Positions 1,362-23,951 of a stretch of 24,000 nucleotides of DNA are shown here, one piece after another. The notes beneath the pieces are model-generated. The model had not been told where the DNA came from and made no database searches. It worked only from the letters and a program-made list of their open reading frames with translations. How positions within the stretch are numbered: the first letter of the stretch is position 1; each line of letters opens with the position of its first letter. Both the position numbers and the translations under genes were made by a program. This DNA is from Thermoplasmatota archaeon (GTDB lineage: Archaea; Thermoplasmatota; E2; DHVEG-1; B18-G2), in assembly GCA_029259115.1 (NCBI GenBank), contig JAPDJO010000002.1, positions 27,937-51,936 of the forward strand, in the 5' to 3' direction.

Positions 1362-1362
1362 A

Positions 1363-6405: not shown

Positions 6406-6419
6406 GGAGGTGAGAAAGA

Positions 6420-7055: not shown

Positions 7056-7065
7056 TCTAGATAAA

Positions 7066-7105: not shown

Positions 7106-7139
7106 ACTAATTGGAAAACGGAGGTGGAAGAGGAACTAA

Positions 7140-9562: not shown

Positions 9563-11218
9563 CTATACATCTATTGGAAGACCATCTACACCTTCCCTGT
9601 AATATGTCCATATAACCTTGACAACTTCGTAATAATCTAAGATATCTTCCTCGACCATCCTTTCTAATATTTTTTGCCTAAGATCAAATTCTTCGTATAT
9701 TTCTGTTGGATCTGCATATCCTGCGTTCCTCGCTATCTTTTCTTCTAAAATGTAACTATTCTTGTAAGCCACAAATCTATGGACATCCTCTAAAGGATCC
9801 CATTCGAAAGCCTTTCTAGCCATAATTCCGTCTGCTTCTCTGTTATATCCCTCTATCTCATCTACAGATATGCATCTTCTAACTTTCTTTCCTTTCCTCT
9901 CAACGGCAGACTGTATGAGAACAACATCCAGATTATCCATAAATGTCTTCGGAACGTTTATGGGATCGCTCGTAAACCTCTGTATAACCTTCGTTACACT
10001 GCCAGCATGAAATGTAGTCATAACAGGATGTCCAGTCTGCATCGCTTGGAATACTATGTTGCCTTCTGCACCTCTAACTTCACCAGGTATTATATAGTCA
10101 GGTCTTGATCTTAAAGCAGCTACTAATAGATCAAATAAATCTACTCTACTTTCTTCTGGCCCTGTTGTTTTTGTTAGTAGCCTTTGCCACACCTCATGAG
10201 GAACTTTCAGCTCTGGGGTTGTCTCTGCTGTGTATATCTTTTTCTCTGGCGGTATAAAAGGAATAAAAGCATTCATGGTAGTGGTTTTTCCGCATGCTGT
10301 CTCTCCGCATAGAAAGATATTTCTACCATACTGTAGGCATATCCAGAAATAGGCAGCTATTCCTGCGGATATCGTCTTCCATTTAATAAGCTGGGTTACG
10401 CTTATTGGTACTTCCGTGAACTTTCTTATGCTCATGCTTGGTCCTTTTATGCTCACAGCTGAGCTATATATTATATTAGCCCTGCTACCATCTGGAAGGA
10501 TACCATCGGATATGGGTTTAGCTTCGCTGACAGGATTACCCATTTTTTCACTTAAAGCTCTCGAAAATTTTGGAGCTTCATCTTTGGGTATCAGAATATT
10601 TGTTTTGATCATCCCAAATACTTTGTGAATAAGATGAACATATTCTCCAGTTATGACGTGTATATCTTCTATATACGGATCCCTCATAAAAGGTTCAAGA
10701 GGCCCTCCTCCAACTAAGGTCTTGTATATATCATATTCTATCTTTTCTTTCTCCAGTGGTGTAAGATATACTTTGCTCTCGTTTTTTCCGAACAGCTTAA
10801 GAAGACTTTTCTGGGATTTCAGTTTTATATTGCTCTCTGTTGTTACAACAATCTCATCTAACAATTCTTTCAATATCTTTTTCAGATCCTCATCATTATC
10901 TGCTGCATTCTTCCTTACGACCTCCTTTAACATAAGCTTCATTATCTTTTCTTTCTTTTCTTTCTCCTCATCATTCAAAGAAGGCTCTATCGCATGATAC
11001 TCTATCTCTTCCATCCCAGGCAGTCTATAGATGTGAACAAAAACATTTCCTTTGGTTGGGTATATTATGTTTGGATACTTCTCTTCGCTTAGTTCCATTG
11101 GAGGAGCTTTAAGAAATTTTGGTGTATCCATTTTTTCCTTTATCTTGTCGAGATATTCCTTCAAGTGGGGATTCTGTTGGATTATCTTTTCGATTTCCTC
11201 CCTCTCCATTTCATACAT
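9563..11218 (-). CDS. arlI: Archaellum motor/assembly ATPase ArlI (FlaI), distal paralogue
   Basis: 551 aa of the type II/IV secretion ATPase family. Walker A is GETACGKTT and the Walker B region is RSRPDYIIPGEVRG, followed by FQAMQTGHPVMTTFHAGS. It is about 70 percent identical (by eye) to the neighbouring copy. Confidence 0.9.
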   Translation of the reverse strand: MYEMEREEIEKIIQQNPHLKEYLDKIKEKMDTPKFLKAPPMELSEEKYPNIIYPTKGNVFVHIYRLPGMEEIEYHAIEPSLNDEEKEKKEKIMKLMLKEVVRKNAADNDEDLKKILKELLDEIVVTTESNIKLKSQKSLLKLFGKNESKVYLTPLEKEKIEYDIYKTLVGGGPLEPFMRDPYIEDIHVITGEYVHLIHKVFGMIKTNILIPKDEAPKFSRALSEKMGNPVSEAKPISDGILPDGSRANIIYSSAVSIKGPSMSIRKFTEVPISVTQLIKWKTISAGIAAYFWICLQYGRNIFLCGETACGKTTTMNAFIPFIPPEKKIYTAETTPELKVPHEVWQRLLTKTTGPEESRVDLFDLLVAALRSRPDYIIPGEVRGAEGNIVFQAMQTGHPVMTTFHAGSVTKVIQRFTSDPINVPKTFMDNLDVVLIQSAVERKGKKVRRCISVDEIEGYNREADGIMARKAFEWDPLEDVHRFVAYKNSYILEEKIARNAGYADPTEIYEEFDLRQKILERMVEEDILDYYEVVKVIWTYYREGVDGLPIDV

Positions 11219-11233
11219 GTTTCTTTCACTTTC

Positions 11234-12880
11234 TCATATCGAGAAAGGTAGACCATCTATCCCCTCTCTATAATAACTCCAGACTATCTTCACAACCTCA
11301 TAGTAATCCATTATCCCCTCTTCCACCATTCTTTCAAGTATTTTCTTCCTTAGATCAAACTCTTCGTAGATCTGCATCCTGTCTTCGAAGCCCGCATTCT
11401 TTGCGATTTTTTCCTCTAGGATATAGCTATTTCTGTTAGCCCTAAATAGATGAGTATCATCTACGGGATTCCACTCAAATGCTCTTCTTGACATGATCGC
11501 ATCTACTTCCTTGTTATATCCCTCTATCTCTTCTACAGATAATACTCTTCTTATCCTTTTCCCTTTCCTGTCTACCGCCATCTGTATCAGTATAACATCC
11601 AGATTATCCATGAAAGGCTTCGGTATATTTATTGGATGTCCGGTAAACCTCTGTATAACCTTCGTTACACTGCCAGCGTGAAATGTTGTTATAACAGGAT
11701 GTCCAGTCTGCATCGCTTGGAAGACAACCCTTGCTTCTATACCTCTCACCTCACCAGGTATTATATAGTCAGGTCTCGATCTGAGGGCTGCATCCAGAAG
11801 ATCTATAAGCTCAACATGACTCTCCTTTGGGCCTGTTGACCTAGTCAAAAGCTGTTGCCAGACTGGATGAGGAACATGAACTTCTGGTGTGTTTTCTGCT
11901 GTATAGATCTTCTTCTCTGGAGGTATAAATGGAATTATTGCATTGGTAGTGGTAGTCTTTCCAGAAGCTGTTTCGCCGCATACAAAAACACTCCTACCAT
12001 ATTGTAAGCACAGCCACAAGTATGCAGCTATTCCTGCACTCATCGTTCCCCATTTAATAAGTTGGGTTACACTTATTGGTGTCTCGCTGAACTTTCTTAT
12101 GGTCATTGTTGGACCTTTTAGGCTTACATCTTTGCTGTGAATTATATTAACTCTACTGCCATCTGGTAATGTACCATCTGCTATGGGTTGTCCTTCGCTG
12201 ACCGGACTACCTATCTTTTCACTAAACTCTTGGGAAAAGGTAGGTGCCCACTCCTCATCTATGAATATATTTGTCTTTACCATCTCAAACACTTTATGTA
12301 CAAGATGAACATGTTGTCCAGTTATGACATGAACATCTTCTATATATGGATCTCTCATAAAAGGTTCAAGAGGCCCTCCCCCTATGATACTCTTAACTAT
12401 ATCATATTCTATCTTTTCTCTTTCAATAGGTGTAAGAACGATCTTTTCTCCTTTGAACTTGCCAAATAATCCTTTCTTTTCCTCTATATCTCCTTTCTTT
12501 TCAGAAACTACAACTATCTTATCCATCATCTTTTTTATGAGTTCTCTTATTTCCTCATTCGTCCTCATTTCTTTCTTTTTTATCGCTTCTTCATAAAGCC
12601 TTTCCATAATCATATCTCTTTTCTTCTTCTCCTCATCATTCAAAGAAGGTTCTATCGCATGATACTCTATCTCTTCCATCCCAGGTAGTCTATAGATATG
12701 GATAAAGACCGTGCCTTTGGTTGGATATATCAAGTTAGGGTACTTTTCATCTCTCAGTTCTCTAGGAACCTGACTGTAGAATCTTGGAAAATCCATCTTG
12801 TCCTTTATGCTTTCTAGATATTCTTTTAAATGAGGATTCTGCTGAATCAATTTCTTAACCTCTTCTTCGTTCATTATCAT
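11234..12880 (-). CDS. arlI: Archaellum motor/assembly ATPase ArlI (FlaI), proximal paralogue
   Basis: 548 aa. Walker A is GETASGKTT and the Walker B region is RSRPDYIIPGEVRG, followed by FQAMQTGHPVITTFHAGS. It directly follows arlH. Confidence 0.9.
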   Translation of the reverse strand: MIMNEEEVKKLIQQNPHLKEYLESIKDKMDFPRFYSQVPRELRDEKYPNLIYPTKGTVFIHIYRLPGMEEIEYHAIEPSLNDEEKKKRDMIMERLYEEAIKKKEMRTNEEIRELIKKMMDKIVVVSEKKGDIEEKKGLFGKFKGEKIVLTPIEREKIEYDIVKSIIGGGPLEPFMRDPYIEDVHVITGQHVHLVHKVFEMVKTNIFIDEEWAPTFSQEFSEKIGSPVSEGQPIADGTLPDGSRVNIIHSKDVSLKGPTMTIRKFSETPISVTQLIKWGTMSAGIAAYLWLCLQYGRSVFVCGETASGKTTTTNAIIPFIPPEKKIYTAENTPEVHVPHPVWQQLLTRSTGPKESHVELIDLLDAALRSRPDYIIPGEVRGIEARVVFQAMQTGHPVITTFHAGSVTKVIQRFTGHPINIPKPFMDNLDVILIQMAVDRKGKRIRRVLSVEEIEGYNKEVDAIMSRRAFEWNPVDDTHLFRANRNSYILEEKIAKNAGFEDRMQIYEEFDLRKKILERMVEEGIMDYYEVVKIVWSYYREGIDGLPFSI

Positions 12881-12889
12881 TTTATCACC

Positions 12890-13603
12890 TCAGAATGCAA
12901 CCGCTGAAGTTTCTATTGTTAAACCTATACCTGGTCTTACTGAGAAGGTTGTTACTGGCTCATACCTATGCCTTGCACCATTGAACTTTTTGAGATAGAT
13001 ATTATGCACAATTCCCAAACCTGGCTTAGTTTCTCTAGTTACTAAGAAGTGAAGATCTGATATCATCCTAAACTCGTGATTTATCTCTTCATCCCACTCC
13101 TTCGGATTCATAGTAATAAATATGATCTTTCCAGATCCCGTTAATCTGTTAAAGAAGCTGATCAACTCTACAAGATTCTCTTTGTTTAAACTCTCCTTGA
13201 GCAGGGTAGATAGTGAATCTATGAAAATTATCTCTGGCTCAAAGAGTTTTTTAGCTGTTATAAGAGATTTAAAAAAGGTATTTCTTGGTAAAGTTTCAGC
13301 TAGCATAACCTCCGTTGAAATGAAAAACAGCTTGCCGGACATCAGATATTCTTTCATATCATATCCAACAGAAGCGACCTGGCGAAGAAAACCCTTAACA
13401 GTATATTGCGTTGATACATAGGAGCAAGTATGTCCATTTTTAAGAAAACTGTAACAGAATCTCTGGCAAAATATGCTTTTTCCTGTGCCTTCTTCACCCT
13501 CTATCAAAACTAAAGAACCATCTGGTATAGCCTGACCAAATCTCTGCTCAAATCCATCCTTCTCTCCTCCTCTTTCGAGTACTATGGATTTATAGGTCGG
13601 CAT
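12890..13603 (-). CDS. arlH: Archaellum KaiC/RecA-like ATP-binding protein ArlH (FlaH)
   Basis: 237 aa with Walker A GEEGTGKS and the Walker B-like IIFIDSLS. It occupies the canonical position between arlG and arlI. Confidence 0.88.
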   Translation of the reverse strand: MPTYKSIVLERGGEKDGFEQRFGQAIPDGSLVLIEGEEGTGKSIFCQRFCYSFLKNGHTCSYVSTQYTVKGFLRQVASVGYDMKEYLMSGKLFFISTEVMLAETLPRNTFFKSLITAKKLFEPEIIFIDSLSTLLKESLNKENLVELISFFNRLTGSGKIIFITMNPKEWDEEINHEFRMISDLHFLVTRETKPGLGIVHNIYLKKFNGARHRYEPVTTFSVRPGIGLTIETSAVAF

Positions 13604-13612
13604 CCCATCACC

Positions 13613-14065
13613 TCATATCTCAAAGTTAAACTCATCATAGACCCCTCTTGGACCAACAAGCTTTAGTTTATGGTTTCCAGAAGTTATTTCCGTGGATGAT
13701 ATGTATAGAGTTACCACATCTGACTGTAAAACATAGTTAGAAGAGAAGTAATAGTTGCTTTTTCCAATGATATTTCCATCTACGAAGACCTGAAATGTAT
13801 CATTTGTTGTTTCTATCTTCTTATCACCTATATTTTTAACATAGAAAAGATAATATCCAGCTGATATCGGTATATTTTCTGGATCATTTATGATCTCAAA
13901 GTCTGTGTCTAGCTTATCTTTGAGCCTATCACATTTCTCTGTCAGACTTTTACTTATGTCCATGGTTACAGCGGTGAATATTCCAGATACTGCTCCAGCT
14001 ACGATTACAGCTGCGATGAAGAAAACTATGTGAGTTCCCGTCAAACTGAAACCCATCCTAATCAC
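13613..14065 (-). CDS. arlG: Archaellum stator/periplasmic protein ArlG (FlaG)
   Basis: 150 aa with an N-terminal hydrophobic archaellin-like helix (GTHIVFFIAAVIVAGAVSGIF) followed by a beta-rich domain. The F-versus-G assignment rests on gene order. Confidence 0.75.
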   Translation of the reverse strand: MIRMGFSLTGTHIVFFIAAVIVAGAVSGIFTAVTMDISKSLTEKCDRLKDKLDTDFEIINDPENIPISAGYYLFYVKNIGDKKIETTNDTFQVFVDGNIIGKSNYYFSSNYVLQSDVVTLYISSTEITSGNHKLKLVGPRGVYDEFNFEI

Positions 14066-14488
14066 CTATGCACTATACGTCTCATAATCGCTAATCCCAT
14101 TTCCAGTGACAACTTTTACTCTTACTAAACCAGTATAGGTAAGATTTGTTATGTTGAGAATAACTGTATTTTCAGGATAGAGATAGGGAAGGTTATAATC
14201 GAAGTCCTCGATAGTTCCATTTACTATAACCGTGAAATCCTTAACCTCCAAGCTTACACTACCTGTATTTTCCACTTTTATAGAAATATTATAAGGTTTG
14301 CCCGGGCTTTTAGTTACATTTGTTATCTCTATATCCGTATTTGCTCTCTCTACGATTCTATCTTCCAATTTTTTGTAAGATCTTTCCAACTCAGATGCAG
14401 CCGGAAGAACACTACTCGAGAATATATCTATACATACAACTAGGCATACACCTAGTATTGCGAATGCCGCTGATGTTGAGAATCCCAT
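14066..14488 (-). CDS. arlF: Archaellum stator/S-layer-binding protein ArlF (FlaF)
   Basis: 140 aa with the MGFSTSAAFAILGVCLVV N-terminus followed by a beta-sandwich-like region. Its stop abuts the arlG start. Confidence 0.75.
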   Translation of the reverse strand: MGFSTSAAFAILGVCLVVCIDIFSSSVLPAASELERSYKKLEDRIVERANTDIEITNVTKSPGKPYNISIKVENTGSVSLEVKDFTVIVNGTIEDFDYNLPYLYPENTVILNITNLTYTGLVRVKVVTGNGISDYETYSA

Positions 14489-14517
14489 CCGTACCCCCCA
14501 AAGTTTGAGGCTTTTAT

Positions 14518-15285
14518 CTATTGAAAGGAAAGATTCTCAAGATTCTTGCTAAGTTTACTCAAATCTCTCTCTATTTTTCCTATGAAGTGCTCATCTATCT
14601 CGTTACCTTTCAACTTCTGTATGTAAAGGAATGATTGAATGTGATCCTTTGCTACAAGATTTCTTCTCTCGCTGGTTTCTTCTGTTATCCCTTCACAGTA
14701 CTCAAGTAACTTTACCTTTACATCATCTGTTATCCATCCAATATCGACGTAGTAATCTAAAACCTTGGAAATGTTATCTTTTCCTACTCTATCCACGAGG
14801 TATTGTAGCCACTTCATTACTATTACAACACCTTCTGGATCATTTGGTAGGGAATCCAAAGTAGATGCTCTGAACTCTATCTTTTCTTCTCCAGGAATCC
14901 TTATATCTTCTGGCTTGCTTTCCTTGATTTTTACATCCACATTTTTCATCCACTCGTCCTGCATCCTTTCTAGTCTCTCCACTCTTTGATGAAGATTCTC
15001 TAAAGTCTGAAGGAATTTGTTCATCTCTTCAGCAGGCTGAAATGATGTTGTGCTTGGAGGAGTTGATGGCTGAGATGTAGATGAAGTTTGTGTGGACTTC
15101 TCTCTCAGATATGAATTTATCTTATCAACTAATTTATAAAGTTGATCCTTGGTTAAAGTTAAATTTTTCTCTTTCACCTTCTCTTTTATCTTTTCAGCTA
15201 TTGATGGCGTTATTCTACCCTGAGCAACGAGGGCAGAGAGTTCTGCGCCTAGCTCAAATTTTTCAACCAAATCCTTATCACTCAT
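14518..15285 (-). CDS. arlD: Archaellum accessory protein ArlD/E (FlaD/E family)
   Basis: 255 aa. The C-terminal LPNDPEGVVIVMKWLQYLVDRVGKDNISKVLDYYVDIGWITDDVKVKLLEY matches the FlaD/E domain signature (W-L-x-x-L ... YY-x-x-I-G-W-I). A Ser/Thr/Pro linker and an N-terminal helical region precede it. Confidence 0.85.
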   Translation of the reverse strand: MSDKDLVEKFELGAELSALVAQGRITPSIAEKIKEKVKEKNLTLTKDQLYKLVDKINSYLREKSTQTSSTSQPSTPPSTTSFQPAEEMNKFLQTLENLHQRVERLERMQDEWMKNVDVKIKESKPEDIRIPGEEKIEFRASTLDSLPNDPEGVVIVMKWLQYLVDRVGKDNISKVLDYYVDIGWITDDVKVKLLEYCEGITEETSERRNLVAKDHIQSFLYIQKLKGNEIDEHFIGKIERDLSKLSKNLENLSFQ

Positions 15286-16024
15286 TTTTTACCTCCTCCA
15301 AAAACCTATCAATCACATCATCTATACTATCTTCCAACATTAACGTTGATATTGCTTTTTCTACAACATCATCGAGTTTCATAGAACTACCCGATAATGT
15401 AGGAGTAACCTCTGTAGCCATCCCTGTAGTCTCAGTAGATCTATCTGTCGGTATTTTACCAACAAGTATTTCCAAATCTTCTAGCCTGCTTTTTATCTTC
15501 TCAAACTCTTCTGTGAATTTCTCTAGAGCTTCTAGCCTCTGCTTTGTTACTTTTGATAAACCAACAAATGGATTCATTTGTTCAGAGACTATTTCGTATA
15601 GGCTTACCAAATCATCTAAATCCTTGTTGAGATTCTCTATTCGATTCTCGAGATCCTTTATCATGTCCCTATTTTTTGATATTTCGACTTCCAACTTAGA
15701 CAATTGTTTATCTAAGTTTGGTAAGATGTTGGTAGCTGGTACTTGTGGTTGCGATTGTTTATCTTCCTCCTTGACTGGGGCAGGAGTTATCTCCTTTTCC
15801 TTGGTTTCTAAGGTTACATCTTGTTGCTCTTCCTGCTCCTTCCTGCTCTCGGTTTCTTCTGAAGAACTTTCCTTCTTCTCGAATTTCAACATTTTCCTAG
15901 TTCCGTCTCCAAGATCAACCTCTTTTACCATAACTTCTTCCTTGTTTTCTTTTATCTCCCCCTCCTCTTTCCCTTTCCTAAACTTTAACTTTATACTAAC
16001 CCCTCCACCTCCGTTTTTAAACAA
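15278..16024 (-). CDS. arlC: Archaellum accessory protein ArlC (FlaC family)
   Basis: 248 aa. A coiled coil ends in DDLVSLYEIVSEQMNPFVGL, the FlaC signature (YE-x-V-x-x-x-x-NPF). The start is uncertain: the track start is TTG at 16024, and the first ATG is at 15931 (Met32). It overlaps arlD/E by 8 nt. Confidence 0.8.
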   Translation of the reverse strand: MFKNGGGGVSIKLKFRKGKEEGEIKENKEEVMVKEVDLGDGTRKMLKFEKKESSSEETESRKEQEEQQDVTLETKEKEITPAPVKEEDKQSQPQVPATNILPNLDKQLSKLEVEISKNRDMIKDLENRIENLNKDLDDLVSLYEIVSEQMNPFVGLSKVTKQRLEALEKFTEEFEKIKSRLEDLEILVGKIPTDRSTETTGMATEVTPTLSGSSMKLDDVVEKAISTLMLEDSIDDVIDRFLEEVKNE

Positions 16025-16030
16025 TTAGGT

Positions 16031-16049
16031 AATATCTATATCAGATATT
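16031..16049. promoter_or_regulatory. Inverted repeat AATATCT-N5-AGATATT abutting the TATA-like element of the divergent arlC / PAS-protein promoter region
   Basis: The 7-bp arms at 16031-16037 and 16043-16049 are perfect reverse complements. The adjacent TTTATATTTTTA (16048-16059) is TATA-like on both strands. Confidence 0.3.
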
Positions 16050-16147
16050 TATATTTTTACCTCATCTCTCTGTTTGCAGGAAAAATCTTTTAAAATCTAA
16101 TAGCCTAACTGAATTGGAGGAGGAGTTTAACACGGAGGTTAAAATAG

Positions 16148-17983
16148 ATGTCACAAGATAGTAGATCCAATAATTATATGGATTTTTTTATACTTGGTAT
16201 AGATAGCAATGCTAGACTTATTGCATTCAACAGAAAGTGCGAAGAGTTAACTGGTTACAGGAGGGATGAGATTCTCCATAGAAAGATATGGGGCACCATT
16301 TTTCCTAAAGAATATAGAAGGAATTGGAATAGTATATTTTTGGATAGGGTAGAAAGAATCGAGTTACCTCTCCTAGATAAAAATAGAAAGAGGCTAGATC
16401 TAGTCTGGAGTCCTATGGAAGTAGGTATCAAAGATAAAGAAATTTGGCTCATTGGAGTAGAGAGATCGGAAGAAAATAAACTCTGGGATTTTTTAGAAAT
16501 AGAAAAAGTTGGAAACCCTGTTGATAAGAAAAATAATAACGAGAATCTGAAGAAAAAGATCGATGAATTGTTAAAAGTCAAGAATTCAATAGAAATTGCA
16601 ACAAATCTTATAGAAAGACAATGGAAGAAGATAAGTGATTATGCAAAACAACTAAGCAATATGGAAAAGATTTTGGAGAAAGAAAAAAGAAAACTTGAGA
16701 AAGAGAAGAAAGAGATGGAGAAACATAGGGAAAGAGTGGAAAACCTAATGGAGAGAAAACTTTTCTATTTTGAGAGAAAACTCAGGGAAAAAACAAATAA
16801 AATTTCCAAACTAAGTGAGAGAGGATCTGTTTTAAAGAATTTGAATGAAAGATTGAGAGAGATAGAGTATATGAGCAGGGAACTAGAAGTAATGTTGAAT
16901 GGAGTGATGGAAAAAGAGGCAGAGATCAAAGATCTAGAAAAGAGAATTAACCTAGAGAAGGAAAACTTGGAGAAAGACAAAAGAGAAATCAGAATGAAGC
17001 TGAAAACCATTGAGACCAAGGAAAAGGAACTGGTAAGAAAAGAGAACGAGCTGAGAAAAAGAATCAGAGAGGTAGAGAATAAGGAGAGAGATATACAAAA
17101 TATGAAAATCAAACTGGAAAATGAAAGGAGAATATTGGAAGAAAGGATGAAAGATATTGAAAAGAGACTGGAATTAGAGAAAAATATATTCATGGAGCAA
17201 CTAGAGAGTAAATATAAAGCTGTATTTGAAAGAAAAATAAATGATCTCAAAAGAAAACTCGAAGATTATAAAACAAGAGAAAAAGAACTTAAATTAGATA
17301 TAACTCTCCTTAAAAAAAGAGAGAAGGAATTGGAGAAGGAGATAGAGAAATACAGATCTAAGGAAAAGGAGCTACTTGAGCTAGAGGAGAAGATAAATAA
17401 AGAAAGAGAAGAAATCGCTAAACTCGAAGAAGAAATCAATGCAAGGAGTAAACTGCTAGAAGAGATGGAAAACAGGGAAAGAGAAATCATATACAGGGAA
17501 AACGAACTCAGGAAGAAGGAGAAACAACTCAGGGAGAAAGAGAGAGAGCTGATAGATAGAGAGAGAGAACTCCGAGACATGCTTATAAGATCATCATTAC
17601 AAGAAACGACATTGCCTATAGTGAAAGAAACCAAAAAATTGGAACAAGAGACCGAAGAATCAAAAGATCTCTCTGAGATGGAGATCCCTGCCGCACTTGT
17701 AAGGAAAGGAATGATCCTCAAAGCAAATGAACAGTTCCTTTCTCTCACAGGACTTAGTGAAAGAGATATTACCAACAAAAGCTTCTTTTCGTTGATAGCT
17801 CCAGAAGAACTCCCAAACCTGCAGAGATATTACTTATCTAGATTAAAAGGAGCAGATATAGATTCAATCGATACTATTATAGTGAACAGCAAAAATGAAA
17901 AAATACCAGTGAAAATAAAATTAAATCAAATAAAATTAAGAGACGGTATCTTTGATTTAGCGCTTATAGAGTCGTTAGACTAG
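16148..17983 (+). CDS. PAS / long coiled-coil / PAS protein with no recognisable output domain
   Basis: 611 aa. The N-terminal ~110 aa are PAS-like (FILGIDSNARLIAFNRKCEELTGYRRDEILHRKIW). Residues ~125-490 are an uninterrupted E/K/R/L-rich heptad-type region. The C-terminal ~100 aa form a second PAS-like fold (ALVRKGMILKANEQFLSLTGLSERDITNKSFFSLIAPEE). GGAGGT lies 8 nt upstream of the ATG. Confidence 0.8.
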   Translation: MSQDSRSNNYMDFFILGIDSNARLIAFNRKCEELTGYRRDEILHRKIWGTIFPKEYRRNWNSIFLDRVERIELPLLDKNRKRLDLVWSPMEVGIKDKEIWLIGVERSEENKLWDFLEIEKVGNPVDKKNNNENLKKKIDELLKVKNSIEIATNLIERQWKKISDYAKQLSNMEKILEKEKRKLEKEKKEMEKHRERVENLMERKLFYFERKLREKTNKISKLSERGSVLKNLNERLREIEYMSRELEVMLNGVMEKEAEIKDLEKRINLEKENLEKDKREIRMKLKTIETKEKELVRKENELRKRIREVENKERDIQNMKIKLENERRILEERMKDIEKRLELEKNIFMEQLESKYKAVFERKINDLKRKLEDYKTREKELKLDITLLKKREKELEKEIEKYRSKEKELLELEEKINKEREEIAKLEEEINARSKLLEEMENREREIIYRENELRKKEKQLREKERELIDRERELRDMLIRSSLQETTLPIVKETKKLEQETEESKDLSEMEIPAALVRKGMILKANEQFLSLTGLSERDITNKSFFSLIAPEELPNLQRYYLSRLKGADIDSIDTIIVNSKNEKIPVKIKLNQIKLRDGIFDLALIESLD

Positions 17984-18832
17984 CTCTACTATTCTGTTTG
18001 TGAACACACATGGTGCAGCAGCATCAAATGTACCAGGCGCTCCTACCTCCGGAACGAAGCTGCCAGATATTGATGCTCTTGGTGGTAATCCGGTTGAGTT
18101 GAATGCAGCAGAGAGATTGACTATTATTATTGCTTTGTCTCCGACATTCATACCATAGTTCCTGTATATTGAACCATCTGCATCGTGTAAGGCTATTATT
18201 CCAAAGGTTGTTGCATTCAGAGATACGCTCAGCGTATGGAAAACTCCATCTGGACTAACCTTGGATGCAACATATCCGTCTTGGTCAGAGTATGTTAATG
18301 TAATTAGCCTATCATATTTCAGATATAATATAGTATTCTTGAGATCTATATCTTGAGAACCAGATCTTGGTCTCACAGTCAGAGCCAGATGGGTTATGTA
18401 TGTCTTATTCTCGTTTGTATAACCTACTACATCTATAACAGCTAAGCCACTCGAAATCTCTCTAGTTGTCTGCAAACCAACCTTGTTCGCTCTTTGTTGC
18501 AGAGTTTCTCCAGTTTTTATAAGAACGCTTGCTGCGACCGCAGATACCAGAATCATAGCTATAAACACTATCAGTGTACCTATACCAACGAAAGCCATTT
18601 GATCTCCTTTAAAACTCTTTTTGATTTTCCTCATTGATCTAGGCTTTATTGCCACTATTGACTTCAGATTCAAACAACCTAGCCCTTGATCAGAATCTAC
18701 GATCACAAAACCTGCATCATAATCTATTTCTTCCAAAATCCCAGAGATGACACTAGCTCTTTCCTTACCCGGCTCCTTTAATACTATCTTACAGTATCTT
18801 CCCACCAGCCTATCCATATACCTCTTCTCCAC
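17975..18832 (-). CDS. arlB4: Fourth archaellin with an in-frame N-terminal extension (Sm-like small beta-barrel pattern)
   Basis: 285-aa ORF. Residues 80-285 are a typical archaellin (FVGIGTLIVFIAMILVSAVAASVLIKTGETLQQRANKVG ... PEVGAPGTF). Residues 67-79, MRKIKKSFKGDQM, resemble a normal class III leader. Residues 1-66 are extra. There are three candidate starts. GTG 18832 has AAGGAGGTG upstream (GGAGG at 18842-18846, 9-nt spacer). ATG 18634 has no obvious SD. ATG 18598 has AAGGAG 5-6 nt upstream. Confidence 0.85.
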   Translation of the reverse strand: MEKRYMDRLVGRYCKIVLKEPGKERASVISGILEEIDYDAGFVIVDSDQGLGCLNLKSIVAIKPRSMRKIKKSFKGDQMAFVGIGTLIVFIAMILVSAVAASVLIKTGETLQQRANKVGLQTTREISSGLAVIDVVGYTNENKTYITHLALTVRPRSGSQDIDLKNTILYLKYDRLITLTYSDQDGYVASKVSPDGVFHTLSVSLNATTFGIIALHDADGSIYRNYGMNVGDKAIIIVNLSAAFNSTGLPPRASISGSFVPEVGAPGTFDAAAPCVFTNRIVELV

Positions 18833-19037: not shown

Positions 19038-19622
19038 ATGATGAGAGAAGCAGGGAGTACAGGAATTGCATCGGCTATCCTTCTGATAGCGATACTACTC
19101 ATGGGCAGTAGTGCAATCTATACAACAATAAGTCAGGATAGCATATCTTCAGGTGATTTCGAAAATAAGGTAAATGAAATACTAGATGACATAACCTCAT
19201 ATTTCCTAGTAAAAGAAGGCTATGCCAAAACAGACGGGAACGAAATCAAAATACTCTTACTGGTTAAACCTATCTTTGATGATCCCATCTCAATATCAAA
19301 TCTCACTCTTCAGGTAATTGATGATGATTCTATTCATGTGTTGAAACTTCACGACATATATGAAACAGGGAAAGATTTGTTTGATAGCGACCTCTGGAGC
19401 GAGATTAATCAGAGCTTTTGTATAATCCCTGTTGTTGATAGAGATGAATCCATTTCCAAAGAAAAGACGGTGAATGGAGATTTGTTTTATGTGGCCTTGT
19501 GCCTAAGAGGGATAGAAATAGGCGAAGATATTGAGATTTCTATTCTATCGGAGACAGGGTCAATTTCTGTATTAACCATCGATATACCCTTCTCCACGTC
19601 TGATGTTTTCAAGATATACTAA
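19038..19622 (+). CDS. Protein with an archaellin/type IV pilin-like N-terminus and a novel C-terminal domain
   Basis: 194 aa. MMREAGSTGIASAILLIAILLMGSSAIYTTISQDS aligns in pattern with the archaellin N-termini of this window (G-x-x-G-I-x-x-x-I-x-x-I-A-x-x-L). The remainder is acidic and beta-rich with no motif I recognise. Confidence 0.6.
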   Translation: MMREAGSTGIASAILLIAILLMGSSAIYTTISQDSISSGDFENKVNEILDDITSYFLVKEGYAKTDGNEIKILLLVKPIFDDPISISNLTLQVIDDDSIHVLKLHDIYETGKDLFDSDLWSEINQSFCIIPVVDRDESISKEKTVNGDLFYVALCLRGIEIGEDIEISILSETGSISVLTIDIPFSTSDVFKIY

Positions 19623-21157
19623 TGCCTAAAATATCTCTGTCCAGTAAATACCATTATTAGCCCATGCTCATCCGCCGCCTTTATAACTTCTTCATCCCTT
19701 ATTGATCCTCCTGGCTGAACTATGGCTTTTACTCCAGCCTCCGCAGCAAGATCGACAGCATCTCTAAATGGAAAGAACGCATCACTCGCCATTATAGAAC
19801 CTTTTATCCTGTCTTTCCCTTTATGGGTAGCGATAAATGTTGCATCAACTCTAGCTGTTTGTCCTCCTCCTATAGCTACCGTATGAGTATCTTTTACAAA
19901 GACTACAGCATTTGATTTCACATGTTTTACACATTTCACTGCAAATACCATGGATCTTATATCCTCAGCCGAAGGCTTCCTCTTTGTAACGACTTTCCAA
20001 TCCTTTGGATCTATTTCTTTAACGTCTCTATCCTGAATCAACATACCTCCAGTCACACTCCTAAAACAGATATCTTCGGACTTATCATCGATATCTGGTA
20101 CTTCTAAGAGACGAAGCCTTTTCTTTTTACCGAGAATCTGAAGAGCCCTTTCTGTAAACTTAGGGGCAACTATAACTTCTAAGAAGTATTTGGATAGATC
20201 TTCTGCTAGCTTAGAATCAACTTCTCTATTAAATGCTACAACTCCGCCAAATGGAGAGTATGTATCTGTTTCATAGGCTTTTATCCAAGCATCAAAAATG
20301 TTATCTGATGAGGCTATCCCGCAAGGAGTAGCATGTTTGATAATAACGGCTGTTGGTTCATCAAACTCTTTTACACATTCTAGAGCAGCATCAGCATCTA
20401 GTATGTTGTTGTAGGATAGCTCCTTTCCCTGAAGTTTTCTAGCATTTGCTATACATCCTTCTGCTCTCTCTGGTAGGATTTTGTAGAATGCACCTTCCTG
20501 ATGCGGATTCTCTCCGTATCTAGTCTTTTGTATCAATTCAAATGTTAGAGTTAAATTCTTTGGAAATTTCTCGTTAAGCAACCTTTTTCTTAGATAATTT
20601 GATATTATCGCATCATATCTTGCAACATGTTCAAAAGCCTCGACAGCTAGCTTTTTTCTGAACTCTTCATCTATCCCTATCTTAAGCTTTTCTATTAGCT
20701 CATCGTATCTGGATGGATTTACAACAATAAGTACATCCTCAAAATTCTTTGCTGCAGATCTTATGAGCGTAGGTCCACCGATATCTATGTTCTCTATAAC
20801 TTCATGCAAATCCACATTTTCCTTCTTTATGATCTCTTCAAAAGGATAGAGATTACATACCACTAGATCTATGGGTTTCATTGATAAATTCCTTAGAATG
20901 TTCAGATGTTCTTCTTTCTCTCTCTTTGCAAGGATGCCTGCATGAATCTTGGGGTGCAAAGTTTTTACCCTTCCATCTAATATCTCTGGAAAGCCGGTAA
21001 AATCTGATAATTCTGTGACATCTATTCCCTTTTCTTTCAAGAATCTATACGTTCCTCCGGTAGATATTATGTCAAAGTTGAGTTTCTGAAGCTCCTTGGC
21101 TAAAAAATCTACCCCTCTTTTATCATAGACACTTATCAGTGCTAATCTCTTTCCCAT
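19619..21157 (-). CDS. purH: Bifunctional AICAR transformylase / IMP cyclohydrolase
   Basis: 512 aa with SVYDKRG, STGGT and DGRVKTLHPKIHAGIL in the MGS-like IMP cyclohydrolase domain, followed by a full-length AICARFT domain. Confidence 0.92.
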   Translation of the reverse strand: MGKRLALISVYDKRGVDFLAKELQKLNFDIISTGGTYRFLKEKGIDVTELSDFTGFPEILDGRVKTLHPKIHAGILAKREKEEHLNILRNLSMKPIDLVVCNLYPFEEIIKKENVDLHEVIENIDIGGPTLIRSAAKNFEDVLIVVNPSRYDELIEKLKIGIDEEFRKKLAVEAFEHVARYDAIISNYLRKRLLNEKFPKNLTLTFELIQKTRYGENPHQEGAFYKILPERAEGCIANARKLQGKELSYNNILDADAALECVKEFDEPTAVIIKHATPCGIASSDNIFDAWIKAYETDTYSPFGGVVAFNREVDSKLAEDLSKYFLEVIVAPKFTERALQILGKKKRLRLLEVPDIDDKSEDICFRSVTGGMLIQDRDVKEIDPKDWKVVTKRKPSAEDIRSMVFAVKCVKHVKSNAVVFVKDTHTVAIGGGQTARVDATFIATHKGKDRIKGSIMASDAFFPFRDAVDLAAEAGVKAIVQPGGSIRDEEVIKAADEHGLIMVFTGQRYFRH

Positions 21158-21204
21158 GAATCTTACCCAAAGGCAATAAGAAAAGGGGAAATAAATCTTT
21201 GGAT

Positions 21205-21969
21205 TTAATTAGAAGACTTGCTGAATTTGATAGCCTCTTCCATTTCGATTTCTCCTTTGAGAACTTTAAGTGCTAATTCTCTGGATATAGTTATTCTACC
21301 ACCGCTTAGGATCCTACTTTTTCTCTGCACTTCCTTTATTTCTCCATCGGTAAATCTTCTGTCTCCATTTCCTCTTACCGATCTACCTCTTGATTTTGCT
21401 ATCCTTATAGCAGCTACCTCGTTTCTTTCCATTCTTGAGTATCCAGTTCTCTGACTCGTTTTTGTTTCATCTACTATTTCAATTCTGATATCAACATCTC
21501 TTAAACCGTCTATGATTCTATCCCTGTAAATTCTGGCATCATGGCCTATCCTTACTATCCTCTCCTTGTCTGAAAAGTCACTCAGAATTTTTCTTACTAT
21601 TCCTAAAGCCTCATCTGTGGATGATGCACACCAGGTTCTTAGAACAGTTTCACCAGAGAGGAGGGCTATACCAGGGTACTCCCCTGGATCTATTCCTATC
21701 ACGATCTCGTCACTATTTCCATGTAAAATTTGCATAGCCCTATCCAATGCAGAATCTATGTCTCTAAAACAGTCAGCATATACGACCTTCCTTCCGCCTA
21801 TATCTTTACCCTCAGCTGAAGATGTTATAATGACACCAACCTTATGCGGTATTCTATCTATGGAGTGTAAATGAATATAATCTATGCCTCTTTCATTCAT
21901 CTTATTCATTATGTCATGTGCTAGCGAGAAATCCTTTGTGTATATCCCCACTATCTTCATCTTTCCCAC
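21205..21969 (-). CDS. Conserved hypothetical protein with an RNase H-fold (RuvC/YqgF-like) core
   Basis: 254 aa. IVIGIDPGEYPGIALL (the first acidic-residue strand typical of RuvC/YqgF folds) is followed by IEIVDETKTS (a second acidic motif), with a basic C-terminal tail. It overlaps the upstream cca ORF by 13 nt. The functional call is tentative. Confidence 0.45.
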   Translation of the reverse strand: MGKMKIVGIYTKDFSLAHDIMNKMNERGIDYIHLHSIDRIPHKVGVIITSSAEGKDIGGRKVVYADCFRDIDSALDRAMQILHGNSDEIVIGIDPGEYPGIALLSGETVLRTWCASSTDEALGIVRKILSDFSDKERIVRIGHDARIYRDRIIDGLRDVDIRIEIVDETKTSQRTGYSRMERNEVAAIRIAKSRGRSVRGNGDRRFTDGEIKEVQRKSRILSGGRITISRELALKVLKGEIEMEEAIKFSKSSN

Positions 21970-23951
21970 GGCATCTTGTTTTCTATATACTCTGTCCAGA
22001 ATAATTTCAAATCATCCCTTAATAAATCTTTCGATGTAAGGATGCTAAATTTACCATCTTTTACAACTTCCTCTATATCTTTTCCGAGGCTTAATTTTCT
22101 CAGATTTTTAGCGAGAAAATCATCCAATCTATTATATTTCCTTTTTACCTCTACATACCACCTTCCATCTTTGAGATAAGGTCCTTTAACTACTTCTTTG
22201 CTGTTTCTCCATTTTTCCAAGAAAGCTTCAACATGCCTTTTTTCTTTTTCTGGAGGTCCCCTATGTATGTATGTTTCTGGTAGTTCTATCTCTTTTGGCT
22301 TGAGAAGAATGTATATCTTGTCTTCAGTGACCACAAACCTTCCATCCTCTATCTCGAAATCATTTTCTTCACACGATTTAACTATCCTTCTCAAAGTCTT
22401 CTTTGCCTGTGGGTACAGATTATCTGGAATTATATCCGGCTTTTCTATTTCTACCCCGATAAAACCATCTAGATGTTTTTTTATTTCCTCATCAGGTAGA
22501 GGTTTTATGGTTTGAGGGAAAAAGAATCTCTCGCTCGGCTTTTCCAGATATTCTTTGCATGCTCTTTTGAATATCTCTAGTTTCTCCTCGGATACGGCTG
22601 ATGCAACATTTCTGTTTGGATCTACCGGATCTATAAAAACTAAAGGATCATTAAAAGCTGGCGAAGGAACTTCCTTGAGTTTTATCACCTCCCCCTTTTT
22701 CCAGTCTTTTGCATTCCTAAGAACATTTTCAAAGGATCCATATTTTAGTATCAGGAGTTCACATAGATAACCCGAAAAACCTTCTACCTCTGCCTCTGCA
22801 CCATAACAACCTATACCTTTTAGAAATCTTTTTAACAATCTTACATCCTTTCTTTTTCTGAAAGGTAGATTTTCTCTTATGAAATCTGTATGAAAGGGAG
22901 TTCTATCAACCGCAGATATCTTTTCAGATGCTTTTTTCACTCTATAGCAAGGAACAATCTCGACATCATATCCCTTGTACTTTCCCCTTATATAGGGATG
23001 CTCCGCATATCTTTCTTCATGCTTTTCCAGTATTTTTCTGCCTATCAAAAGTCCCTTTCTTTCCATTTCCTTTCTCGGTGTGTTTGGAGGGAACAGTAAA
23101 AATATGTCTATATCTACGGAATCTCTAAGATAAGTATCTTTAGCAACTGATCCAACCAATTTTGGTACAGCTTTTATGTTCTCTTTCTTGATTTCCTTTT
23201 CTATTTTGTCTAAGAGCTCTAAAACTATCCTGTTCAGTTTCCTTCTCTCAGCAAAACTCGGTGTAATCTTTCTCAAAACCTCTTTTTCTATGCTGTTCTC
23301 GTAATTCACTACTCCGCAAGCTATCAAAAATATAGATATCCCTCCAATAACATCTGTTATCCAGTGTATGGATAGATATAGCACTGAGAATATCACACCT
23401 AGAGCAGATATCAAAGTGATGTAGAAATATCTTCTATCTCTCATAAAACTCGATGACTTTACTAGGAGAAGTGCCATTGCAACATGTAAGGATGGAAAAC
23501 AGTTATTTTTCGTTGTTACTGCATAAAAGAACTTCTCAATCCCTGGTATGATCTTACCCAAATGGAAATCTATGCCTAAATATGTGTACACATTTGTTAC
23601 AGGTAGAAATAGATAAAAGGGCAGGGCGCAGAGATAGATTATAACCAAACCATATGATAAACTCCTCATGGCTTTTTCCTCGTTGCCAATCAAGAATAGG
23701 AGTGGAGAAAACCATAGGGTAAATGGGTAGAGGATCATATAGAAGAATACTGAGATAATGGAGATCAAGTTAGAAGTATTTTGAGATAGATATTCGAAAA
23801 AACCTTTCTCATAAGAATAGAAGACCGGAGCAAAATCTTTCCCTATTAGATTGGTGGTAAATCTATCTATGAAGTTCACTTCAAACAAGTGGAAAAGTAC
23901 AACCAGAATTAATATAATCAGATGTAATCTGAGATTGAAAAATCCTTCCAT
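21957..23951 (-). CDS. cca: Single ORF fusing an N-terminal membrane PAP2-type phosphatase/phosphotransferase domain to the archaeal class I CCA-adding tRNA nucleotidyltransferase
   Basis: 664 aa. Residues 1-213 have about 6 TM helices and the PAP2 motifs FPSLHVAMA and SIHWITDVIGG. Residues ~220-664 carry GSVAKDTYLRDSVDIDIFLLF, AEHPYIRG, VDRTPFHTDF and GFSGYLCELL, which are diagnostic of archaeal CCA-adding enzymes. No stop separates the two parts. The only candidate internal start is GTG 23309-23307 (Val215). Confidence 0.85.
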   Translation of the reverse strand: MEGFFNLRLHLIILILVVLFHLFEVNFIDRFTTNLIGKDFAPVFYSYEKGFFEYLSQNTSNLISIISVFFYMILYPFTLWFSPLLFLIGNEEKAMRSLSYGLVIIYLCALPFYLFLPVTNVYTYLGIDFHLGKIIPGIEKFFYAVTTKNNCFPSLHVAMALLLVKSSSFMRDRRYFYITLISALGVIFSVLYLSIHWITDVIGGISIFLIACGVVNYENSIEKEVLRKITPSFAERRKLNRIVLELLDKIEKEIKKENIKAVPKLVGSVAKDTYLRDSVDIDIFLLFPPNTPRKEMERKGLLIGRKILEKHEERYAEHPYIRGKYKGYDVEIVPCYRVKKASEKISAVDRTPFHTDFIRENLPFRKRKDVRLLKRFLKGIGCYGAEAEVEGFSGYLCELLILKYGSFENVLRNAKDWKKGEVIKLKEVPSPAFNDPLVFIDPVDPNRNVASAVSEEKLEIFKRACKEYLEKPSERFFFPQTIKPLPDEEIKKHLDGFIGVEIEKPDIIPDNLYPQAKKTLRRIVKSCEENDFEIEDGRFVVTEDKIYILLKPKEIELPETYIHRGPPEKEKRHVEAFLEKWRNSKEVVKGPYLKDGRWYVEVKRKYNRLDDFLAKNLRKLSLGKDIEEVVKDGKFSILTSKDLLRDDLKLFWTEYIENKMPWER

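Follow-up and report, generated by a model that had tools for sequence, protein, structure and literature searches.

A PAS-coiled-coil-PAS protein of the archaellum gene cluster as a possible sensory adaptor or regulator in one Thermoplasmatota clade

Introduction

What does a protein made of two PAS folds and a long coiled coil do inside an archaellum gene cluster? The question is raised by a gene on the plus strand of a Thermoplasmatota contig, which lies between arlC and an archaellin gene in the 24,000-nucleotide stretch analysed here (the window). We refer to its 611-aa product as PCP, for the PAS-coil-PAS protein of the archaellum cluster. Three forms of archaellum regulation are known, namely control by the Che-CheF-ArlCDE route, by the transcription factor EarA and by the crenarchaeal Arn network. 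To our knowledge, archaella have barely been studied in the Thermoplasmatota phylum. A first-pass annotation of the window had put PCP forward as a candidate component of the polar cap beneath archaellar motors or, alternatively, as a PAS-gated regulator.

Architecture of PCP

PCP is encoded by a genuine ORF and is a soluble cytoplasmic protein without prior characterisation. A PAS fold occupies each end, and between them lie approximately 350 helical, heptad-patterned residues rich in E, K, R and L.

16148-17983, plus strand: PCP gene, 611-aa PAS-coiled-coil-PAS ORF, ATG start
16178-16495, plus strand: N-terminal PAS, residues 11-116 (Pfam PAS, PAS_8, PAS_4; AF2)
16496-16552, plus strand: variable disordered inter-domain linker, residues 117-135 (pLDDT <50 at 120-132)
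16553-17137, plus strand: helix/coiled coil 1, residues 136-330, ~29 nm (AF2 helix, pLDDT 80-91; heptad scan)
17138-17218, plus strand: break in the coil, residues 331-357 (AF2 non-helical, pLDDT ~48-56)
17219-17599, plus strand: helix/coiled coil 2, residues 358-484, ~19 nm (AF2 helix 358-484)
17600-17686, plus strand: acidic disordered linker, residues 485-513 (pLDDT <50 at 485-505; net charge -5)
17687-17974, plus strand: C-terminal PAS, residues 514-609 (Pfam PAS_9, PAS_3; AF2 topology 515-609)

No transmembrane segment was detected, the maximum Kyte-Doolittle 19-mer being 0.74. Pfam and NCBIfam searches at E up to 0.1 returned no kinase, HTH, MCP or HAMP domain, and no MCPsignal or HisKA/HATPase match, in agreement with the earlier claim that PCP carries no output domain. 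The Pfam FlaC_arch, Arch_fla_DE, ArlX, Arch_flagellin and KaiC-like profiles did not match PCP, while its neighbours were matched. Since PCP has no enzymatic or DNA-binding output, it must act via protein-protein contacts. The linker at residues 117-135 differs in length among the sequences of alignment A1, and its equivalent in close homologues has a dN/dS of 0.3-0.4.

Identity of the PAS domains

The PAS-like sensor folds proposed for both termini were recovered by Pfam, AF2 and Foldseek. The Pfam PAS family scored above gathering at both ends, with best stretches at residues 11-69 and 519-602. Bit scores (cut-offs in parentheses) were 41.3 (27) for PAS_9, 32.9 (22.6) for PAS, 29.4 (25.6) for PAS_3 and 24.6 (21.8) for PAS_8, and the NCBIfam model TIGR00229 gave 45 bits (22.9). 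In the AF2 model, residues 14-116 and 515-609 adopt a PAS topology, with the N-terminal strands at 14-19, 24-27, 71-76, 82-90 and 98-105 and helices interspersed. Foldseek matched PCP to solved PAS structures (EcDOS, FixL, 3mjq, 3bwl, LOV and NifL) with target TM of 0.66-0.83 and rmsd of 2.1-3.2 Å; the output leaves unstated whether the N- or the C-terminal PAS domain was aligned. PCP is thus placed in the PAS superfamily both by profile and by structure, the latter showing a five-stranded antiparallel sheet with helices at its flanks. PDB sequence searches with each PAS domain alone returned PAS matches only, none of them significant.

The first-pass annotation had also raised haem and flavin as cofactors; inspection of the key residues gave no cofactor signature in either domain. 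Neither Fα helix in the AF2 model (58-65, RNWNSIFL; 552-566, EELPNLQRYYLSRLK) carries a proximal His of the EcDOS/FixL type, which rules out a heme-PAS identity. His44 lies before Eα, at a site occupied by Lys in the homologue P0059. The flavin-adduct Cys of LOV domains, within an NCRFLQ-type motif on Eα, is likewise missing, the equivalent stretch reading LHRKIWGTIF, and a LOV photosensor identity is ruled out as well. Cys31 lies outside the LOV motif position and is replaced by Ser in the homologue P0019 and by Gly in P0059; neither His44 nor Cys31 is conserved in P0019 or P0059.

Family distribution and conservation

PCP homologues, of 395-633 aa, form a small family found only in Thermoplasmata/Thermoplasmatota MAGs, where they are annotated "PAS domain S-box" or "hypothetical". 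A scan of 185,579 species genomes with two peptide patterns recovered the family in only three Thermoplasmata MAGs. In an exhaustive profile search of an HMM library that carries no taxonomy, only about five clusters matched the whole N-terminal module. The HMM output consisted mostly of generic multi-PAS proteins, and only single-stretch, full-module matches were counted as members; all named members are Thermoplasmata or Thermoplasmatales. A word-index search with the N-terminal 175 residues returned no match and missed even the 64%-identical P0001; we took this as a limit of the index and used the HMM search instead. No cultured host of PCP was identified.

The members P0019, L025 and L033 share about 30% protein identity with PCP. 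A more distant orthologue, in locus L032, keeps both PAS domains, its gene having the same position and orientation in the cluster, and these two domains are its only alignable parts (29% identity and E 2e-13 for the N-terminal PAS, 33% and E 4e-15 for the C-terminal PAS). All PCP domains are under purifying selection, with dN/dS of 0.02-0.10 in the PAS domains and 0.05-0.16 in the coil. Conservation is highest in the PAS domains, not in the rod, and extends to two PAS-proximal coil segments. Invariant residues of the N-terminal PAS in the close clade include F27, N28, W60, LVWSPM (85-90) and WLIG (100-103).

The coiled coil

The middle of PCP is 51% E+K+R and 13% L, and is Pro-free between residues 124 and 490. 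Over residues 136-484, the heptad a/d hydrophobic signal lies 9.8 SD above 500 composition-preserving shuffles, none of which reaches it (0/500), and the a/d positions are mostly L, I and M. The first-pass annotation had described an uninterrupted heptad region of about 360 residues spanning some 50 nm. Its E/K/R/L-rich heptad pattern was upheld by the heptad scan (z = 9.8) and AF2, but a single uninterrupted register was not: the best register shifts several times along the coil, and the heptad score falls to 0.15-0.2 at windows 337-371, matching the AF2 break at 331-357. The span is accordingly 52 nm only if the coil is continuous, and ~29 + 19 nm with the break. This break region is deleted in homologues of 481-512 aa.

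The two conserved coil segments are the coil 1 motif 'NLIExQW..Y' (residues 153-165), which is invariant in alignment A1 and still recognisable in P0019, P0059 and L032-521, and the coil 2 segment 'KLLEE.E..ERE.I' (approximately residues 435-480), with invariant A1 columns at 435-479. In close relatives the distance between these anchors is 290, 197 or 158 residues. The differences, 93, 132 and 39, are not divisible by 7, so rigid helix-rotation signalling between the PAS modules is unlikely, and a register-preserving signalling helix is unsupported. In P0059, which is 395 aa long, some 150 residues are helical; in the L032 orthologue, coil-like sequence is limited to one or two short stretches, accompanied by a segment rich in Q, N and S. 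Helical content in the family ranges over roughly 90-350 residues, about fourfold, so the long coil is lineage-specific.

Two further possibilities were rejected. TRF detected no substantial DNA tandem repeats underlying the coil, which rules out recent repeat expansion as its origin. An SMC/Rad50-like hairpin does not fit a break that is off-centre (195 vs 127 residues) and deleted in shorter homologues, nor termini that are PAS domains; SMC models gave 14-22 bits against cut-offs of 567-729, in the coil region only.

The polar-cap hypothesis

As a structural scaffold, PCP would polymerise or bundle via its coil. It would either build a cytoplasmic polar structure (a cap, cone or sheet) or link the motor to one, its PAS domains being the points of attachment. 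According to PMC10117864, and as the first-pass annotation had stated, the protein composition of the cap is unknown; the motor-to-cap gaps of 35-44 nm reported there for P. furiosus and T. kodakarensis are of the same order as a rod of 29 + 19 nm, at most 52 nm. The position of the gene inside the arl cluster and the purifying selection on the coil also agree with such a role. Against it, the coil of ~350 residues has a length of only ~150 in P0059 and is represented by no more than one or two short stretches in the L032 orthologue, while the motor proteins stay well conserved, ArlH being 83-95% identical over the range in which coil length varies. This variability makes a fixed-geometry strut or lattice component unlikely. 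The PAS domains are moreover better conserved than the rod, and the sequence bears no sign of higher-order assembly.

The distribution of PCP argues in the same direction. By the two-pattern genome scan and the taxonomy-free HMM library, the family was recovered in Thermoplasmata/Thermoplasmatota and not in the taxa with imaged caps (Thermococcales, Halobacteria); searches of this kind leave room for analogous, non-homologous proteins in those taxa. Recovered by these searches in one narrow clade only, PCP is unlikely to be the Pyrococcus/Thermococcus cap protein. Furthermore, cryo-ET of O. meridianum, the sole archaellated Thermoplasmatales species so examined, revealed no polar cap (PMC12448462). 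A polar-cap role for PCP is therefore not supported, and we judge the scaffold reading improbable. Since the family was not found in cap-imaged organisms and no cultured host was identified, PCP offers no direct way to test the polar-cap question. The other suggestion of the first-pass annotation, a PAS-gated regulator, agrees better with the evidence. The PAS domains and PAS-proximal coil are conserved and coil length is variable, a pattern more in keeping with a sensor or adaptor than with a ruler.

Genomic context and gene boundaries

The following features of the cluster bear on the role of PCP. The divergent neighbour, arlC, is the first gene of an arlC-DE-F-G-H-I1-I2-J operon.

4838-5176: EarA gene, a regulator in the PCP cluster
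15278-16024, minus strand: arlC (Pfam FlaC_arch, E 3e-13), divergent neighbour of PCP
16045-16061, minus strand: arlC BRE/TATA-like element GGTAAAAATATAAATAT, ~22 nt upstream of the arlC TTG
16080-16097, plus strand: PCP BRE/TATA-like element GAAAAATCTTTTAAAATC, 51-68 nt upstream of the ATG
16134-16139, plus strand: Shine-Dalgarno-like GGAGGT, 8 nt upstream of the PCP ATG
17975-18832, minus strand: fla285 archaellin (Pfam Arch_flagellin 80-269), convergent with PCP
18641-18832, minus strand: fla285 N-terminal Sm/Hfq-like domain, residues ~1-64 (AF2, Foldseek, alignment A3)
19038-19622, plus strand: fla194, divergent archaellin-like gene (Pfam Arch_flagellin, E 6e-7)

The intergenic region between PCP and arlC (16025-16147) had been interpreted as a shared divergent promoter region of 123 bp; the length is correct, but the promoter is not shared, as two elements lie back to back, one per gene. 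An element related to that of PCP is present in the same place in all loci, and the GGAGGT is conserved across the compared loci, so that PCP keeps its own promoter-like element and Shine-Dalgarno sequence even where arlC is missing. From archaeal BRE/TATA geometry, the element probably acts as a promoter. The arlC element occurs only in loci with arlC adjoining, and the rearrangement breakpoints fall between the two elements. Rfam gave zero matches on the window, L006 and L022, and a sigma-70 and intrinsic-terminator scan stayed at background level, its models being bacterial and inapplicable to archaea. The upstream region of L006 encodes the N-terminal portion of a pilin-like PKD/Hint protein (1051 aa), whose reading frame extends beyond the end of the locus.

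PCP is divergent from arlC in 15 loci, bearing out the archaellum linkage claimed at first pass, and convergent with fla285 in 20/20 loci that have downstream sequence. At least three rearrangements removed the arlC adjacency and kept the PCP-fla285 pair; the constant neighbour of PCP is fla285, rather than arlC. In turn, fla194 is always divergently paired with fla285, and is syntenic in all loci that reach it. Homologues away from arl genes, which the first-pass annotation would have counted against its proposal, were not found among the loci examined: all members with readable context, including those of ~30% identity and L032, adjoin an archaellin gene, and most adjoin arlC. No che genes were found in the window, and the 'Taxis in archaea' review makes no statement about their presence in Thermoplasmata. 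The tandem ArlI duplication (I1/I2) is co-inherited with PCP, and independent co-occurrence of the two was ruled out by an I1/I2 tree that shows one old duplication shared by descent.

Could the archaellin, not the motor, be the partner? PCP might bind the Sm/Hfq-like leader of fla285 as a chaperone, gatekeeper or part of a secretion feedback, or the convergent PCP transcript might read antisense through fla285. The PCP-fla285 adjacency is the only invariant of the locus, present in 20/20 loci and outlasting the rearrangements that removed arlC, and the fla285 leader is cytoplasmic and extremely conserved. As noted at first pass, the PCP stop overlaps the end of the archaellin gene: the stops at 17981-17983 and, on the minus strand, 17975-17977 give a 9-nt overlap, and most loci overlap by 4-9 nt. 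On the PCP strand, no T5+ run follows the stop for 530-1020 nt in 10/11 loci, and in 11/11 loci the first 90 nt past the fla285 stop contain T5+ runs, mostly at 37-85 nt. However, this asymmetry is explicable by codons, with AAA-rich Lys at the PCP end and a Lys-poor archaellin, and a T7 run inside the 45-nt spacer of L025 indicates that read-through is not universal. Hundreds of fla285-type archaellins also occur in lineages without PCP, with an equally conserved Sm-like domain, so PCP is not required for this type of archaellin. An archaellin-specific role is, in our estimation, unlikely.

PCP might instead serve outside motility, for example in general redox or stress sensing, and owe its place in the arl cluster to inherited synteny in a young clade. 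All known members belong to one clade, and within the close clade the purH and CCA-adding enzyme genes are syntenic as well, so the arl linkage may partly reflect shared ancestry. PCP is also encoded on the other strand and has a promoter-like element to itself, and arlC adjacency was lost repeatedly. In L032, however, where the purH/CCA synteny is lost, a fla285 paralogue and arlC still flank the PCP orthologue, which has exactly the position seen elsewhere. The searches turned up no family member in other contexts, and a second, unrelated PAS-coil family (family B, below) also adjoins these archaellin genes. An unrelated role is hence doubtful, and we would be surprised to find it borne out.

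Proposed function of PCP

The reading that we favour, which we rate a little short of an even chance, is that PCP is an adaptor or regulator of the archaellum system, probably dimeric and sensing through its PAS domains, and specific to one Thermoplasmatota lineage. PCP would form a homodimeric rod in which the helical coiled coil separates two PAS modules. One or both modules would register an intracellular cue, whether a ligand, a redox state or a partner protein, and PCP would then bind cytoplasmic components of the archaellum and so modulate its assembly or rotation. As partners, the ArlC/ArlDE switch proteins, ArlH together with the two ArlI paralogues, and the Sm-like leader of the archaellin encoded next door are candidates. 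Docking or transmission would likely fall to the conserved coil segments beside each PAS domain, and the variable middle would be a dimerising spacer. As the cluster already encodes a DNA-binding regulator, EarA, a non-DNA-binding, post-translational role for PCP is plausible.

In a bolder version, to which we give very little weight, PCP, the second ArlI paralogue and the Sm/Hfq-domain archaellin would form a clade-specific, Che-independent control module. The PCP rod would bridge the motor ring (ArlCDE/ArlH/ArlI1-I2) and the pre-archaellin leader, with a redox or metabolite cue gating the ATPase or its mode (assembly vs rotation), or archaellin export. Such a module would give the archaellum a direct one-component input, and no control of this type has been described so far. 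A PAS-only rod fixed in the arl cluster would itself be a new kind of motor input, probably post-translational. Together, PCP, the archaellin with an Sm/Hfq-like leader and the two ArlI motor ATPases hint at Thermoplasmatota archaella that differ in construction or control from those of model systems.

Comparison with known systems

In sister Thermoplasmatota lineages, we observed a further set of PAS-coiled-coil proteins, family B (L028:7557-9005, L032:5885-9079 and L030:7863-9044). Like PCP, they combine an N-terminal PAS domain with a coil, here of 300-700 residues, and lie beside the fla285/fla194 archaellin pair. No homology to PCP was detectable (E 0.06, from coil composition alone). Family B genes converge with fla194-like genes rather than fla285, and their products carry a conserved 'KTKKIE' acidic tail where PCP has its terminal PAS. 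The two families co-exist in L032. The independent presence of family B beside the same archaellin pair points to PAS-coil proteins as a recurring accessory of these clusters.

EarA is, like PCP, a regulator in the same cluster, but it is a small DNA-binding activator to which PCP, without a DNA-binding domain, is unrelated. Intracellular coiled-coil proteins from type-IV-filament loci offer another comparison: arCOG07564, from halobacterial type IV pilus loci, was proposed by Makarova et al. to be a regulatory subunit, and H. pylori HP0958 is of this kind too (PMC4858521). Unlike PCP, both lack PAS domains, and they show no sequence relationship to it; HP0958 folds as an antiparallel hairpin and has a Zn ribbon.

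The ArlCDE switch complex and crenarchaeal ArlX are thought to relay signals to the motor (PMC7534055, PMC12448462). Like PCP, the proteins ArlC, ArlD, ArlE and ArlX are cytoplasmic accessory factors that contain coils and whose genes lie in the arl cluster. PCP differs in having PAS domains in place of any FlaC_arch, Arch_fla_DE or ArlX domain, and in its opposite strand, its own promoter-like element and its restriction to one Thermoplasmatota clade.

The PAS taxis transducers, namely bacterial Aer/Aer2 and the haloarchaeal soluble Htr/HemAT-type proteins, share with PCP a cytoplasmic PAS domain, a long helical coiled coil and a link to motility. PCP is not a member of this group, since it has no MCP signalling domain, HAMP or methylation helices, and a second PAS domain stands where the transducers have their signalling tip. 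The analogy is one of working principle, in which PCP, like these transducers, would let an internal cue bias motility.

Gene layout of the window

The window carries an archaellum gene cluster with PCP, the PAS–coiled-coil–PAS protein, placed between arlC and an unusual archaellin gene, fla285. No che genes were found within the 24 kb.

Genes and domains of the window (positions in the window, strand, product)
456-3358, - strand: 2-oxoacid:ferredoxin oxidoreductase subunits
3698-4750, - strand: pentapeptide-repeat protein
4838-5176, + strand: EarA-like regulator, 112 aa (Pfam PF07381, E 1.6e-25)
5764-7781, + strand: three canonical archaellins
7778-9553, - strand: arlJ
9563-11218 and 11234-12880, - strand: two full-length ArlI paralogues
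12890-16024, - strand: arlH, arlG, arlF, arlDE, arlC
16148-17983, + strand: PCP
17975-18832, - strand: fla285, a 285-aa archaellin with an N-terminal extension
~18641-18832, - strand: Sm-like part of fla285, ~64 residues (predicted, AlphaFold2 topology)
19038-19622, + strand: fla194, a divergent archaellin-like gene
19619-23951, - strand: purH, an unknown 254-aa gene and a PAP2–CCA-adding-enzyme fusion

EarA is the euryarchaeal archaellum transcription activator, and the three canonical archaellin genes lie just downstream of the EarA-like gene. The fusion gene (21957-23951, - strand) is a 664-aa ORF joining an N-terminal PAP2 domain (membrane phosphatase superfamily) to a CCA-adding enzyme (tRNA nucleotidyltransferase domains), and is syntenic in loci L006, L008 and L033.

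PCP is a two-PAS protein with an interrupted coiled coil

The ORF placed at 16148-17983 in the first-pass annotation is on the + strand and encodes 611 aa. The PAS fold proposed for each end was recovered: Pfam gave PAS-family matches above gathering thresholds at both ends (best stretches, residues 11-69 and 519-602); an AlphaFold2 model built from six family members (mean pLDDT 76) placed PAS topology at residues 14-116 and 515-609; and Foldseek matched the model to solved PAS domains, including EcDOS, FixL, LOV and NifL (target TM 0.66-0.83). The Pfam search detected no domain besides PAS. NCBIfam returned a generic PAS S-box model, along with SMC matches far below threshold that are attributable to coil composition. 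A sequence scan found no hydrophobic segment. Among the cofactor hallmarks sought, the Fα His was present in neither PAS domain and the LOV motif was absent; Cys31 and His44 are not kept family-wide.

The model places long helices at residues 136-330 and 358-484, flanked by disordered linkers (120-135 and 485-513) and separated by a low-confidence, non-helical segment (331-357). Residues 140-500 are 51% E+K+R and 13% L, no proline occurs between residues 124 and 490, and the a/d heptad signal over 136-484 stands 9.8 SD higher than in 500 shuffles. The coil is therefore real, but it is not the uninterrupted one first described, since its best heptad register changes several times and the signal collapses at ~337-371, coinciding with the break in the model. 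As coiled coil, the rod would measure ~29 nm plus 19 nm, reaching 52 nm only if continuous.

Range and conservation of the PCP family

A first homology search was saturated by coil words and yielded five relatives of 481-609 aa. Two peptide patterns run against 185,579 species genomes placed the family in only three Thermoplasmata or Thermoplasmatales MAGs, and 13 more loci came from a scan of metagenomes. An exhaustive profile search, run with the N-terminal module (PAS plus 'NLIExQW' helix) on an HMM library without taxonomy, returned 6147 matches, nearly all of them generic multi-PAS proteins; the whole module was matched by only a handful, among them P0019 (633 aa) and P0059 (395 aa), both divergent and newly identified. 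Public names are limited to 'PAS domain S-box protein' or 'hypothetical protein', and no description of the family was found in the literature searched.

Residues invariant in the close clade cluster in both PAS domains and the adjoining coil segments (153-165 and ~435-480). Between these anchors the coil spans 290, 197 or 158 residues, with differences that are not multiples of seven, and P0059 has only ~150 helical residues. Values of dN/dS were 0.02-0.10 for the PAS domains, 0.05-0.16 for the coil and 0.3-0.4 for the first linker, indicating that the entire protein is under selection. Recent DNA repeats were considered as the source of the coil and rejected.

On the metagenome contig L023 the gene is present as two ORFs, PAS-coil (216-1115) and coil-PAS (1295-2188). 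P0019, which is almost identical, is unbroken at 633 aa. A frameshift, a pseudogene or a sequencing error could each account for the split.

PCP travels with the archaellin pair

To compare neighbourhoods, all window proteins were searched by tblastn against every fetched locus, alongside gene calls. PCP was convergent with fla285 in all 20 loci having downstream sequence, several compared loci being redundant samples from the same populations. The stops usually overlap, by 9 nt in the window, as first noted. The divergent upstream neighbour is arlC in 15 loci, purP/EMG1 in L002, L003, L008 and L018, a 1051-aa pilin-like PKD/Hint protein (L022:1867-5022) in L006, L011 and L022, and an unrelated gene in L024. 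Upstream of PCP, arlC-J has been replaced in at least three independent rearrangements.

The 123-bp spacer between PCP and arlC (16025-16147) agrees with the sequence, but its reading as one shared promoter does not hold. Aligned upstream regions revealed a PCP-proximal BRE/TATA-like element with a Shine-Dalgarno sequence in all loci, and an opposite-strand TATA-like element for arlC only where arlC is present. The breakpoints of the rearrangements lie in the short stretch of spacer that separates one element from the other. PCP is thus predicted to have a separate promoter, and the alignments indicate that it moves together with the two archaellin genes rather than with arlC-J.

Archaellins of the fla285 type are widespread (721 matches); the best 120 of the 721 were 269-325 aa long (all but one 280-325) with query coverage of 94-100%. 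Within Thermoplasmatota, such N-extended archaellins occur widely. Four such genes were sampled on long contigs. In L028 and L031, fla285 immediately precedes arlC in canonical orientation, with one arlI and without PCP. The decisive outgroup locus is L032, where exactly the position of PCP is taken by a gene for a 521-aa protein, running convergently to a fla285 paralogue and divergently from arlC. This protein matches PCP in both PAS domains (E 2e-13 and 4e-15); between them it is mostly rich in Q, N and S, and its coil-like stretches are all short.

L032 also encodes two tandem arlI genes and a 1064-aa member of family B, a second PAS-plus-long-coil family with no detectable homology to PCP. 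Family B (L028:7557-9005, L032:5885-9079, L030:7863-9044) spans 482-1064 aa, with a coil of up to ~700 residues and a conserved 'KTKKIE' acidic tail; it is encoded in sister Thermoplasmatota lineages, is present together with a PCP orthologue in L032, and in L028 and L030 is convergent with a fla194-like gene.

The P0019 lineage (L033) repeats the window layout, including two arlI genes. Both ArlI copies in the window retain Walker A (GETASGKTT and GETACGKTT) and score ~702 bits against the ArlI/FlaI equivalog model, with 69% mutual identity. The copies form two orthologous groups common to the window, L032 and L033, so that PCP and ArlI2 are derived traits that a single clade shares, and their co-occurrences are not independent. 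The tandem pattern reflects a single old duplication.

The partner archaellin has a predicted Sm-like N-terminal domain

In a comparison of 26 diverse homologues, conservation of fla285 is highest over its first ~60 residues. AlphaFold2 predicted an N-terminal helix and five strands in Sm/Hfq topology (residues 3-64), an archaellin helix (79-126) and a β-sandwich domain; the N-domain is followed by a linker rich in K and R, then by the hydrophobic, class-III-signal-like 'A/G-x-x-GIGTLIVFIAM'. Foldseek matched the C-terminal part to filament archaellins (32-43% identity). For the N-domain it returned structures of Hfq and SmAP, M. jannaschii Hfq among them (target TM 0.79-0.84), but the E-values were weak. 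Pfam and PDB sequence searches with the N-domain gave insignificant small-barrel matches only. As modelled, this domain would be a folded leader of unusual length, or else a cytoplasmic domain that stays uncleaved; in the literature searched, archaellins whose leader of ~75 residues is conserved and folded appear to be undescribed.

The neighbouring fla194 always runs divergently from fla285, outgroups included. Its protein is very divergent in sequence, with an identity of 39-49% between close relatives that falls to 25% in L024; fla285 is at 74-93% in those loci. Minor archaellin, hook or cap are candidate roles.

Runs of T5+ lie within 90 nt past the fla285 stop, inside the PCP coding sequence, in 11 of 11 loci, and the PCP strand is free of such runs for 530-1020 nt past its stop in 10 of 11 (in the window, regions 17900-17975 and 17984-18832; plus 10 other loci). 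This asymmetry is suggestive, being compatible with PCP transcripts running antisense through fla285, but could be explained by codon usage or composition. The rival reading in which PCP serves the Sm-domain archaellin specifically, perhaps including antisense read-through, is unlikely in our estimation.

Proposed role of PCP

The features that the family conserves are both PAS domains, the helices next to them and the gene's place between arlC and the first archaellin gene; the long coil of ~350 residues is an elaboration specific to its lineage. Given this pattern, the lack of an output domain and the availability of EarA for transcriptional control, we tentatively favour PCP as a PAS adaptor or sensor, cytoplasmic and probably dimeric, which would act by protein contacts on the archaellum system. 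A role outside motility seems improbable. So, to the same degree, does a structural scaffold or the polar-cap component suggested in the first-pass annotation. The composition of polar caps is still unknown (PMC10117864), and the case for PCP as a component is weakened by its variable rod length, by the few lineages in which the family occurs, and by the lack of a cap in the only archaellated species of Thermoplasmatales that has been examined (PMC12448462).
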